From the NCBI GenBank assembly GCA_965235115.1, contig OZ249436.1:38194001-38258000 (forward strand): a stretch of DNA of 64,000 bases. Reading direction: 5' to 3'. Position numbers and translations under genes: made by a program. Below the pieces are notes generated by a model. It was given only the letters and a program-made list of their open reading frames with translations, was not told the origin of the DNA and made no database searches. Positions 22,810 through 27,392 of this stretch are shown piece after piece. Every line of letters begins with the position of its first letter. The first letter of the stretch is position 1. Source of the stretch: Laetmonice hystrix. Taxonomy: Eukaryota.

Positions 22810-22925
22810 TATAAAAAAAACCCAGAAGGTGTGCACCTGTGCATCAGTTGGCGTTACAGGGTTGGAAACAGCAAACGGAAGAACCAGCGATTGAGGTAAA
22901 GAAGTTCGGAAGCAGAGAACAGAAG
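22810..22925 (+). promoter_or_regulatory. Candidate TATA box, initiator and non-coding first exon of the peptide-precursor gene
   Basis: TATAAAA at 22810; TCAGTT Inr-like motif at 22844; AG|GTAAAG donors after 22895 and 22925; matching acceptor TTTTTCTCCAG at 24985 just upstream of the ATG. Confidence 0.45.
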
Positions 22926-23369
22926 GTAAAGGGTATTTATAACTCTATATACTATATATAGGATATCGTTACCATTTTGTTGTACCATTATCGAAGGATT
23001 CGGAATAATGATTGTTCTACGCCCGATCAGCCCTATAGCCCAAGATCTATAACACGTAAAGAAAAGCGTTTGGGAATAGCGCAGTGTCGGAAAACTCTAT
23101 GTAACTTCATTCCATTCTTTTGAATGTTCCTTCAAAAGATATAACGAGTTGAAGAGCGTGAAAGCTGTTATGATTATTATTTTTACATATCTTTCAACTG
23201 CGTGGTTGTCAACTGTGTGCTCTATTAATATACGAATATAAGTGTTGCACAGTTATTCCCGCTTAAAAAATCTATAAAAATATAAAAGTATAAGTCGGGC
23301 CTATATGAGTTGCCATTTTTCCTCCGTAGGCCTACTTTTTCTTCTGCATGGTATACTCTGTGCTGACCA

Positions 23370-23623
23370 CAGTGACGGATCCGGGGGGCACCCGGCCCTG
23401 CCCCCCTATTTTCCAAAATCTTGGCTATTTTTTATGTTTGGAATGATGGAATTTTGTTAAAGAATTTGGGAGAAATTTCTACTCTACATGTTAAGAAAAC
23501 ATGTTTCCGACTTTCCTGAAAAAAGGAATTCTGGAGGAGGGCCCCCAGACCCCACGGAAATGGGCCACTGATTATCCAACAAAACTTGGGCCCCCCTTTT
23601 CTGAAATCCTGGATCCGCCACTG
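23370..23623. mobile_element. CAG..CTG MITE, TSD GACCA
   Basis: Termini CAGTGACGGATCCGG and CTGGATCCGCCACTG; GACCA on both flanks. Confidence 0.85.
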
Positions 23624-23735
23624 GACCAGATGCTCCCCTGAAATCGAATACCATCCAACCTTTGGAAATCCTGTGGACGCCTATTTTACAATTATTCTAA
23701 GACCCTTGACAGTGCCAATTATCAGACCGTGGCTT

Positions 23736-24104
23736 AGGCCAAAAAAAAAATTCCCGGTTTCTGGTACGAAGAAAATTTCAAAAGTGGTGACGCGGGGTTT
23801 TTCTTAAGAATTTTTTTTGGTGATAGCTGGCTAAGATGGTAAGCCTTATAAGAATTATCATGTAAAATGAACTCATAGATAAGGACCATGACCTTTGCTG
23901 TCATCGCTTTGAATACAAATACACTTCCGTTGCAGTATTAATGAAATATCCATTATAACAATGGTTAGTTTTAAGCCTTACCGCTAGGTGGCAGCACAAT
24001 TCACAGTCATCTAAGGTGAGGGCAAGAAAAAAAAGCACTGATGCACGGCACCTGAAGTGACGCGCGCGCGGACCAGAAATCGGGAATTTTATTTTTTTTT
24101 GCCT
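23736..24104. mobile_element. MITE with ~30-bp TIRs
   Basis: AGGCCAAAAAAAAAATTCCCGGTTTCTGGT pairs with ACCAGAAATCGGGAATTTTATTTTTTTTTGCCT; TTA/TAA flanks. Confidence 0.65.
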
Positions 24105-24106
24105 TA

Positions 24107-24590
24107 AGCTGGTGCTACACTAGGCGACGCAACAAGCGATTTGCTTGCGACGACCCATCGCAACCGGGGGGATGCTGGTCGCTCGTCTCTTGCTCGTCGC
24201 ATCGGTAATGCTGCTACACTTGGCGATCGAACAGGGGACCGCACACTTGATTTGCCGCCTCATTCCAACCAAAATGGCGCGAAAGGCGAATTTCGATGCG
24301 CTAGCCGCAGTCTGGTTGGTTGATCCAGTAGACACGTCATTGCGACGAGCGACGGCGATGGCTACACTTGTAGCAAGCAGGAAAACGGTGCGATTCAGCT
24401 GCAACCGTCGTCGCAAAGAATAAACATGTTCATTCTTTGCGATTTCACGTTTCCACGGTCGCAACGAGTTTGCGCCAGCCTTGCGATGGGCGACGGAGCC
24501 TGCTACACTACGCGATGCGACCGTGGGAACGTGAAATCTCAACGTGATCGCAACGTGATCGCAATGGAATCGCCTAGAGTAGCGCCAGCT
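24107..24590. mobile_element. PIF/Harbinger (Tourist-like) MITE
   Basis: Termini AGCTGGTGCTACACTAGGCGA and TCGCCTAGAGTAGCGCCAGCT; TTA/TAA flanks; internal GCTACACT repeats. Confidence 0.75.
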
Positions 24591-25010
24591 TAAAACACTC
24601 TCTGAATATTACAATGTATATTTATCTATGCTCGACTGCCAGCCCGTATAGTCCAAATGAGATTCGGGGATAAAATACTTCTACTTTTATTTCATAATGG
24701 TCAGTGAACAATCAGTTATTAAACTATTAAAAAGTAAAAGTTACAATCTACCGTTATTTACTCTATGTCAAAGAAACATTTTCCATTAATTTCGCTAGAT
24801 ATATACTCGGCTATATATAGGTTATGATTCTTTTTAAACTCCCCAATGATAATGTGGCCTAAACCTTTTCATGGCACGTTGATTGATGGATTCGACGGTA
24901 TCAAAATTTTAAAACAATATTATGTCAATCGCTAGATAGAAAAAAAACTTTCATGCGATGTTGATTGTGAATAGTTTTTCTCCAGAGACGCCAGATACCC
25001 AGAGTGCACC

Positions 25011-25076
25011 ATGAAACCGATCGTAATGGCCGCCATGTTGGTCGTGGCTGTGTACACCGTCACAGCCGAGACACAG
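25011..25076 (+). CDS. Secreted prepropeptide, coding exon 1 (signal peptide MKPIVMAAMLVVAVYTVTA-ETQ)
   Basis: GCACCATGA start context; basic-hydrophobic-VTA signal-peptide pattern; phase-0 donor CAG|GTACGT; upstream acceptor at 24985. Confidence 0.72.
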
Positions 25077-25386
25077 GTACGTCCGTCCTCACGTCAATAA
25101 AATAATGCCCAATTCTAAATACATTAAAGGAATGAAAGAGTTCCATAGCCCTGGTTCCTTGCCCGAATGAATTTCCCAAGGATTAAACAAATATATAGGC
25201 CTAATATATGAAAACCCGAAAATCTGGAAAGACACGCGTCTTCTCTGAATTGGAATGACGCTCTGAATGCTCAGTAGCTATGGAAGCGTTGTTTTTTACG
25301 CGCCGCCCATATGTGAACGGTGTAATAGAAAACCATATTGTCGCTCGATGCTCGCCGCTTGACGCCCATGTGTGTCTAGGCCTTAA

Positions 25387-26488
25387 AACCAATCTTGTCA
25401 CTAATTCTAATGTAGACCTATGTGTTGTTATCGTCACAGAATAACAACCAATCTTGTCACTAATTCTAATGTAGACCTATGTGTTGTTATCGTCACAGAA
25501 TGACAACCAATCTTGTCACTAGTTCTAATGTAGACCTATGTGTTGTTATCGTCACAGAATGACAACCAATCTTGTCACTAGTTCTAATGTAGACCTATGT
25601 GTTGTTATCGTCACAGAATGACAACCAATCTTGTCACTAGTTCTAATGTAGACCTATGTGTTGTTATCGTCACAGAATGACAACCAATGTTGTCACTAAT
25701 TCTAATGTAGACCTATGTGTTGTTATCGTCACAGAATGACAACCAATGTTGTCACTAATTCTAATGTAGACCTATGTGTTGTTATCGTCACTGATTCTAA
25801 TGTAGACCTATGTGTTGTTATCGTCACAGAATGACAACCAATGTTGTCACTGATTCTAATGTAGACCTATGTGTTGTTATCGTCACAGAATGACAACCAA
25901 TGTTGTCACTGATTCTAATGTAGACCTATTGTGTTGTTATCGTCACAGAATGACAACCAATGTTGTCACTGATTCTAATGTAGACCTATGTGTTGTTATC
26001 GTCACAGAATGACAACCAATCTTGTCACTAATTCTAATGTAGACCTATGTGTTGTTATCGTCACAGAATGACAACCCATCTTGTCACTAATTCTAATGTA
26101 GACCTATGTGTTGTTGTCGTCACTGAATGACAACCCATCTTGTCACCAATTCTAATGTAGACCTATGTGTTGTTGTCGTCACAGAATGACAACCAACCTT
26201 GTCACTAATTCTAATGTAGACCTATGTGTTGTTGTCGTCACAGAATGACAACCAACCTTGTCACTAATTCTAATGTAGACCTATGTGTTGTTATCGTCAC
26301 AGAATGACAACCAATCTTGTCACTAATTCTAATGTAGACCTATGTGTTGTTATCGTCACAGAATGACAACCAATCTTGTCACTAATTCTAATGTAGACCT
26401 ATGTGTTGTTATCGTCACAGAATGACAACCAATCTTGTCACTAATTATAATGTAGACCTATGTGTTGTTATCGTCACAGAATGACAAC
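25387..26488 (+). repeat. 59-bp minisatellite (about 19 copies) made of the intron 3' end plus the first 9 nt of the next exon
   Basis: Unit AACCAATCTTGTCACTAATTCTAATGTAGACCTATGTGTTGTTATCGTCACAG|AATGAC; the last copy runs directly into coding sequence. Confidence 0.95.
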
Positions 26489-26638
26489 ATGGAAGTGCAG
26501 ACGTTGGAGGACGACAACCCGACTCTGGATGATGACAATGATGTGAGAACCGAACGAGTCAAACGTGCGATGGGTCCCGAGCATCTTTATTGGTCACTAT
26601 GGACTCCGTCTCCACCTAACGATAACGATGGACGTTGA
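26480..26638 (+). CDS. Secreted prepropeptide, coding exon 2 (acidic pro-region, RVKR site, 23-aa C-terminal peptide); 74 aa in total
   Basis: TCACAG acceptor, then phase-0 NDNMEVQTLEDDNPTLDDDNDVRTERVKR-AMGPEHLYWSLWTPSPPNDNDGR*; ATTAAA at 26923. Confidence 0.68.
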   Translation, partial: NDNMEVQTLEDDNPTLDDDNDVRTERVKRAMGPEHLYWSLWTPSPPNDNDGR

Positions 26639-27392
26639 GAGTGACGTGCGGCCAGAACGAGTCAAGCACGCGACGCGCGGTCGTTTTTAATATCTTCTTC
26701 TGGGGCCAAGACATTTTCTAGGCCTAAGGTCAAATCGTCACCTCAAGCAAGAATGGAGGAGTCTGGTTCGAGCTGTAAACAGCAATTTGATCTTTCACAC
26801 TTTTTACGCACTCTATAAAATGATAAACATCAACCAGGACTGGTCATATTAGCTTCTACCGATATAAGATTCTCTTTGTTAGTTTGGGTCTACGACTTGT
26901 TCAGACCTTGGCTACGACAGATATTAAAGGACGGAACATATATTCAACCTAATTGAATATTGCCCCCCCCCCCTCCTAAAAATCCTGGATCAGCCAGTCG
27001 TGAGGTAGGCCTAATTATAGTTTTGCTAACGTTGTAATTTAATATACATATCAAGTTTTCTCTCGTGCTAATGCCTTAAAGCCTCGATCCACTGCAACGT
27101 TTCGGTTGCGTTTGCTGGCGGTTCTTGACGGCCGACGGCGGCGGCGCGTTTTTACCGTCACATAAACGCTGAGCAGACGCCACGTTGTGGTCAGCTGCAC
27201 GCACGTCATTTTGAGCAGATCCACCAACGTTCACTGACGGCTACCTGGCGGTATGCTTGGTAGTAGTATATTGCATCACGACCAATCAGCGTGCAGCTTG
27301 AATTTAGTGCACGATGTGGAAATAACAGCAGAGGGGTAGGTCTTTGGTTCAAAAATAAATTAAGATTTATAAGGTATAAAGATCATATAAAG

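Follow-up and report, generated by a model that had tools for sequence, protein, structure and literature searches.

We describe a small gene candidate in a stretch of 64,000 nucleotides (nt) from Laetmonice hystrix (GenBank assembly GCA_965235115.1, contig OZ249436.1, positions 38,194,001 to 38,258,000; this whole stretch is the window, and coordinates count from its first letter), which has the layout of a secreted-peptide precursor with two coding exons, here called exons 2 and 3 (Table 1). The two-exon frame of 74 codons is real: 25011-25076 and 26480-26638, joined precisely as the initial annotation had proposed, give 225 nt that read as 74 residues and a stop, with canonical phase-0 splice motifs on both sides (donor CAG/GTACGT at 25076/25077, acceptor CACAG/AAT at 26479/26480). 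The frame runs from a signal-type exon through an acidic spacer to R-V-K-R, 21 further residues and a terminal G-R-stop. Its start codon at 25011 stands in a Kozak-like context (GCACC-ATG), and exon 2 is preceded by an acceptor, TTTTTCTCCAG, whose last base is 24985. Residues 1-19 comprise a basic n-region, a hydrophobic core and V-T-A ahead of the likely cut, placed by the (-3,-1) rule; as a heuristic measure only, Kyte-Doolittle means in the core reach 3.1 over 7 residues and 3.0 over 10. The net charge is -9 over spacer residues 23-47, and an R-x-K-R convertase motif (RVKR at 26555-26566) follows the acidic spacer. Spacer, RVKR and 21-mer all lie where the initial annotation had placed them, which at the level of sequence supports the prepropeptide layout that it proposed; of the classes that it named for this layout, a cationic antimicrobial peptide (AMP) does not fit the predicted 21-mer, whose net charge is -3.

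The combination of parts lies far above chance. One candidate per strand passed a filter for a signal exon with a donor, and a filter for an acceptor followed by an acidic spacer and RxKR matched only this open reading frame (ORF), with three starts on the forward strand and none on the reverse. The window holds only this compatible exon pair, and none occurred in 30 simulated order-2 Markov windows; the filters are crude and were written after the finding had been seen, so these counts are supportive and yield no clean p-value. In addition, we compared contigs from three runs of genomic sequence, all from one sample that is possibly the source of the window, aligned at 80% likeness to 26445-27400, the exon 3 side of the gene. 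Each run has one own-locus contig, 356-360 nt long, that covers 26462-26817/26821 and differs by 1-3 substitutions, free of gaps. Because these contigs are gap-free in 3/3 runs, the frame, including its G-R-stop, is no assembly error. The runs disagree at positions 26532, 26688 and 26716, which look heterozygous at this locus.

The exon-3 acceptor is itself the last unit of a 59-bp minisatellite of the kind called a mirage, in which tandem units cross an intron-exon boundary and carry spare splice signals. Tandem Repeats Finder reports the array in two rows, of 6.9 and 11.9 copies, and two short units near 25751-25827 interrupt the 59-bp period. It contains 18 copies of the acceptor, and a frame entered from any of the 17 upstream copies meets a stop within 7-9 codons. 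In the terminal unit, one of the two CTAAT branch-like motifs is different; the unit junction is found in contigs of all three runs. In amphioxus, mirages are located on real intron-exon boundaries and were reported not to disturb splicing (PMC3087553). The array described here is like them in its tandem repetition of intron end and exon start, in its spare AG signals and in its period, which lies within the 10-160 bp given there (PMC3087553), and unlike them in sitting on the terminal coding exon of a micro-gene. By this analogy, the mirage modestly supports the exon-3 acceptor as real.

The sample also contains relatives of the gene. At least four sequence types are present, the own locus and at least three others, and in one diploid animal this would therefore mean at least three loci, the two alleles here being almost the same; this count would be less secure if the sample were pooled or mixed. 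Two contigs of 151 nt over 26505-26658 carry 25-26 differences and an in-frame gap of 3 nt (3/3 runs), and a contig of 135 nt matches 26461-26565 apart from 9 differences (listed in two of the three runs), with a loose end at K-R in one run. Similarity among the copies begins 19 nt 5' of the acceptor and, in one type, breaks exactly at K-R. The summed depth at the spacer end, 212-257 as compared with 37-49 for the own contig, is a figure that gives no copy number, and self-comparison found no second copy of the gene within the 64-kb window. The initial annotation had expected homologues to keep the RVKR frame; the related contigs keep the spacer and indeed align through the RVKR codons, with no listed difference there in the two contigs that span them. 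Moreover, in the best-listed contig differences fall at 4 of 62 nt in the spacer and at 15 of 54 nt behind K-R (Fisher p = 0.002 among the differences listed). Pro55 is retained in all three visible types through synonymous codons, as read by hand, and in the contig listed in full no amino-acid replacement is recorded at P55, E56, H57, L58, W63, P65, P67 or P68. A WxxW motif, put forward earlier as a C-mannosylation signal, fails as a feature of the family: in both related contigs that span it the first Trp is Ser (26592 G>C), and the motif, with its putative modification, is present in this copy only. The sample thus holds multiple copies with a conserved pro region and a variable mature region (at least four types; p from 0.002 to 0.17, the higher value being explained below). 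By analogy, this pattern, in which the spacer is kept and the sequence behind K-R has diverged as in frog-skin and conotoxin precursors, suggests that the gene is one copy of a multicopy set.

The spacer end and cleavage site recur further on, in the +1 frame; this second copy, like the mirage array, is absent from the initial annotation. The two copies lie 103 nt apart, which is no multiple of three, and their best 40-nt diagonal has 29 matches, compared with a maximum of 25 in 200 shuffles. Many of the differences between them are at third codon positions, and because they lean so largely to these positions copy 2 appears once to have been read as protein. The first codons of copy 2, ATG GAC GTT GAG, become, one base off, the GAT GGA CGT TGA that ends the ORF, and the start of exon 3 aligns onto N-D-N-D-G-R with one gap, at a score reached by 40 of 2000 shuffles and by 3 of 170 window tiles. 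Read from these alignments, the G-R tail is a by-product of internal duplication and a one-base offset. The letters of the amidation signal noted earlier are present, and this copy does end in Gly and a basic residue, but G-R-stop is no independent evidence for amidation or for a neuropeptide, because it is an off-frame reading of the duplicated spacer. The tail may still have been co-opted, since processing enzymes are indifferent to origin. The offset is old, because the 151-nt contigs, with a net change of -3 nt over 154 nt relative to the window, share it. An internal duplication, read off-frame, can yield a textbook amidation signal, which calls for care in motif-based peptide mining, and in this tail the origin of a new peptide end by frameshift can be put to the test.

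Table 1. Features of the candidate precursor gene, in window coordinates.
Feature	Position	Strand	Observation
TATA-box candidate	22810..22816	+	TATAAAA in the sequence; putative function
Candidate non-coding exon 1	22840..22925	+	TCAGT initiator-like motif at 22844; donors GAG/GTAAAG (22895/6) and AAG/GTAAAG (22925/6); ATG-free; from sequence
Exon 2	24986..25076	+	25-nt 5' untranslated region, start at 25011, 22 codons, phase-0 donor
Predicted signal peptide, residues 1-19	25011..25067	+	Hydropathy heuristic
59-bp mirage minisatellite, about 19 units	25387..26488	+	Each unit repeats the end of the intron, the acceptor and the initial 9 nt of exon 3
Acidic spacer with R-V-K-R (26555-26566) at its end	26480..26566	+	Kept in related contigs
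Predicted mature peptide, 21 residues	26567..26629	+	Cys-free, contains Pro and Trp; most variable part among related contigs
Second spacer end and cleavage site, +1 frame, ending R-V-K-H	26622..26675	+	tblastn self-match 10/16 residues; 36/54 nt
Gly-Arg-stop, possible amidation signal	26630..26638	+	Letters shared with the start of spacer copy 2 in another frame
Frame continuing from spacer copy 2, presumed 3' untranslated region	26670..26852	+	Cationic text, net +6 over 31 codons
Polyadenylation signal candidate ATTAAA	26923..26928	+	Just 5' of high-copy repeats; depth rises from about 26957

Our preferred reading, to which we give a probability of roughly 0.55, is that the gene is one copy of an expressed, lineage-restricted and diversifying family of exocrine or defensive secreted peptides. 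An exocrine or defensive product fits better than a neuropeptide because the family is multicopy and its mature part is variable. From the observed frame, splice motifs, related copies and divergence pattern we infer splicing, secretion, processing and role as follows. The signal peptide would send the 74-residue product into the endoplasmic reticulum and would then be removed, and a furin- or proprotein-convertase-type enzyme, as the motif implies, would cut after R-V-K-R, so that the acidic spacer is discarded and a short Cys-free peptide containing Pro and Trp is released. A carboxypeptidase and peptidylglycine alpha-amidating monooxygenase may trim G-R to an amide, although the relevance of a tail derived from an off-frame duplicate could go either way. 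A constant leader with a variable tip suggests action outside the animal or at its surface, such as skin or gland secretion, defence, or venom-like or pheromonal signalling. Its targets would probably be receptors or proteases; an acidic 21-mer is unlikely to serve as a membrane-lytic AMP.

Several observations weigh against this reading. The three runs represent one sample, and the related contigs could in part be alleles or derive from a second individual or a second species. Six of the 25 differences in the best-listed contig lie outside those listed, and if all six fell in the spacer p would rise to 0.17. The 15 mature-region differences are distributed over codon positions 1/2/3 as 7/4/4 in the annotated frame and as 4/4/7 in the +1 frame; the codon-position test is significant in neither (p = 0.79 and 0.20, respectively), and nothing in the annotated frame points to purifying selection. 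Finally, an acidic spacer in front of an acidic peptide lacks the usual charge-masking logic.

The rival that survives best, unlikely as we take it to be, holds that the gene is the frameshifted remnant of a two-unit precursor. Its ancestor would have consisted of a signal followed by two units of acidic spacer, RVKR and cationic amphipathic peptide, until a one-base offset truncated it, leaving the 21-mer and G-R-stop as off-frame text in a decaying clade or as a minor product. The third-position bias between the spacer copies, with its implication that copy 2 was once translated, speaks for such an ancestry, and so does the coincidence of G-R-stop with the first codons of copy 2, onto which the exon-3 start aligns. 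The copy-2 frame points the same way. Its stop at 26688-26690 belongs to the window haplotype only; 26688 T>C, seen in the own-locus contig in 2/3 runs and in a related contig in 3/3 runs, removes it, so that in most contigs covering 26688 the frame is open to 26852 and its text is cationic (+6). Each of the two indels listed for this region has a length divisible by three (3 nt at 26624; 1+8 nt at 26782-26784, in equally deep contigs), and differences in the mature region favour third positions when read in the +1 frame (7/15). However, the offset is common to the window copy and both 151-nt contigs, which are about 16% diverged, and it is therefore old and tolerated. Moreover, the +1 text behind the first spacer, taken as the ancestral peptide, shows no significant likeness to what follows copy 2 (score 17, reached by 457 of 3000 shuffles), and of nine frame pairs the annotated one scores highest, likewise without significance (G-P-E-H against G-P-R-H, score 23, 321 of 3000 shuffles). 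Spacer copy 2 ends in K-H instead of K-R, and no lesion is seen in the promoter, splice sites or spacer.

We consider it improbable that the gene encodes a lineage-specific neuropeptide or hormone precursor, with one amidated 21-mer acting on an endogenous G-protein-coupled receptor. An Asp-amide end, which this would require, is uncommon. A signal peptide, a basic site and a terminal Gly-Arg are indeed generic hallmarks by which Platynereis precursors were recognised, and many of these lack an orthologue beyond the genus (PMC3890597). Yet the same survey indicates that bioactive elements tend to be the conserved portion of neuropeptide precursors (PMC3890597), whereas here several copies differ in just this portion. 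Profile, sequence and survey-supplement searches matched no known neuropeptide family motif in the mature peptide, and the G-R-stop is accidental in origin.

Decidedly improbable, in our judgement, is the alternative that there is no gene at all and that a low-copy repeat or dead fragment resembles a precursor by chance. Consistent with this alternative, no homologue was found outside this sample. Searches of 5.8 and 1.84 billion proteins, Pfam and PDB were without a homologue: exon 3 (52 residues) had no candidate among proteins of 28-91 residues and no match at E<=0.001 in the 1.84 billion representatives, and exons 2 and 3 matched no Pfam family at E<=1. The 21-mer, described at the outset as assignable to no family, accordingly has no relative in protein, profile or structure searches. 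Recognition by ESM Atlas was low (1266), and its leads, at best 0.83 for exon 3 and 0.88 for the +1 frame, were rejected; a PDB match of exon 3 to the prolactin receptor (query 31-44) had an E value of 1.5 and was taken as chance. In contig scans, pattern matches passed for 1 of 248 in metagenomes, 0 of 4 in viral sequences and 2 of 105 in prokaryote genomes, and the three passing loci are coincidences of 11-14 residues in bacterial DNA, two on the opposite strand of a 307-residue bacterial ORF and one inside a 680-residue membrane-protein frame. An exact-motif literature search gave no relevant match. WTPSPP is absent from the 11 files searched among 16 supplements of the Platynereis survey and from six files of a mollusc-wide peptide survey (two of them in part); in the portions seen of these supplements, GPEHL, WSLW and NDGR occur in unrelated contexts only, and E-R-V-K-R occurs in secreted proteins of other kinds, where it is a generic context for cleavage. 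These searches, made in mostly microbial databases, weakly suggest that the sequence is an orphan. The surrounding 32 kb is also without a recognisable coding exon: none of 150 ORFs in 1500-33700, drawn from 165 of at least 58 residues (the 15 omitted were chosen by eye and mostly of low complexity), reached the Pfam cut-off, and neither did any of 83 further frames. A chance origin is nevertheless at odds with the absence of such an exon pair from all 30 simulated windows, with a similarity among copies that starts 19 nt before the acceptor and, in one type, stops exactly at K-R, with the synonymous-type differences between the two spacer copies and with the mirage on the acceptor.

A last alternative, that two frames are read, the annotated one giving short Pro-rich peptides with an amidation signal co-opted from the off-frame spacer duplicate and the +1 frame, open through spacer copy 2 in most alleles and copies, giving a cationic amphipathic stretch by recoding or an unrecognised splice, would mean that one tiny gene releases two chemically opposite peptides, and we regard it as highly improbable.

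Upstream of the coding exons, the TATA, initiator and untranslated-exon candidates that the initial annotation had located at about 22810-22925 were recovered as motifs, and their promoter function is putative. TATAAAA is one of five TATA-like matches within 22000-25010. It lies about 36 nt from the A of TCAGT, a little long for a TATA-to-initiator spacing that is usually about 30, and ATG is absent from both candidate 5' untranslated pieces. The first intron contains an inverted-repeat element at 24100-24590 that resembles a miniature inverted-repeat transposable element, with self-complementary stretches at 24411-24542 and repeated CTACAC motifs. A short repeat in intron 2 (25254-25384) has a copy at 7674-7814 that is 91-93% alike. 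Within 26454-26479, a TAG 24 nt 5' of the main acceptor would add eight in-frame codons to the spacer and leave the mature peptide unchanged.

The closest genes that can be recognised are a member of the sodium/bile-acid symporter family, on the forward strand from about 37.3 kb, and a PH-domain gene on the reverse strand. The former has several exons (37345-42722) and a PF01758 match at 38625-38879 (E 3e-6); its first exon has no relative at E<=0.001 among longer proteins. The latter (47325-60136) has a PH-domain exon near 60005-60136 (PF00169), with one relative at 77%. A Ser-rich frame of 479 codons (47325-48764), which contains a short PDRG repeat and matches no Pfam family, is assigned to the same gene as a guess. 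Repeats account for other features of the window. A strongly G-skewed minisatellite at 34168-35745 (GC 0.61 and skew 0.57 in 34001-36000), which has GC-rich sequence of a similar kind and an AT microsatellite on its flanks, produces long spurious ORFs, and a short-period array at 49260-49710 likewise appears as repetitive ORFs. At least three copies of one dispersed repeat (30492-30998, 56080-56424 and 58656-59044) have near-identical ORF text, with no Pfam match for the frames tested, and a 53-bp tandem repeat occupies 20000-20187 in 3.5 copies.

Among known precursor systems, one of the closest parallels to the gene is tryptophyllin-3 AcT-3 from frog skin, which has a four-part layout within a 63-residue precursor and a signal of about 20 residues (PMC4279096). 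AcT-3, of the preprodermaseptin type, resembles the 74-residue product described here in being short and in combining a signal, an acidic spacer, a dibasic site, one hypervariable, Cys-free and Pro/Trp-rich peptide and, at the C terminus, a site for processing (PMC4279096). Unlike AcT-3, the present precursor has RxKR instead of RR, is without an N-terminal Gln, carries an acidic C-terminal tail derived from a duplicated spacer and is encoded in an invertebrate genome. Neither signal nor spacer shows sequence similarity to the preprodermaseptin/tryptophyllin superfamily (no Pfam family at E<=1 and no protein match); the likeness is one of analogy and there is no homology. Conotoxin families are recognised by conserved signal and pro regions and include Cys-free products, the conomarphins, as well as amidated ones (PMC4278219). 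Their precursors, conomarphins included, share with this gene the order of signal, propeptide and a single C-terminal mature peptide (PMC4278219). The gene product has no Cys, hence no cysteine framework of a conotoxin superfamily, and it matched no conotoxin family in Pfam or protein searches. The annelid BRICHOS AMPs arenicin, nicomicin and HfBRI are alike in their furin-type dibasic site, variable C-terminal peptide and several members per species (PMC10745061). They differ in having a domain of about 100 residues where the spacer here has about 29, and a cationic mature peptide, the one predicted here being acidic and Cys-free (PMC10745061); Pfam finds no BRICHOS domain in the pro region. 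What is new in this gene is the sequence family and the origin of its tail, while the precursor layout is already well known. Genes of this kind, with two coding exons of 22 and 52 codons and no homologue, are missed by annotation pipelines. If expressed, this one would be a possible source of new bioactive peptides and would represent a new family of secreted peptides, linear and Cys-free, from an invertebrate in which evolution has converged on the precursor design of frog skin and cone snails.

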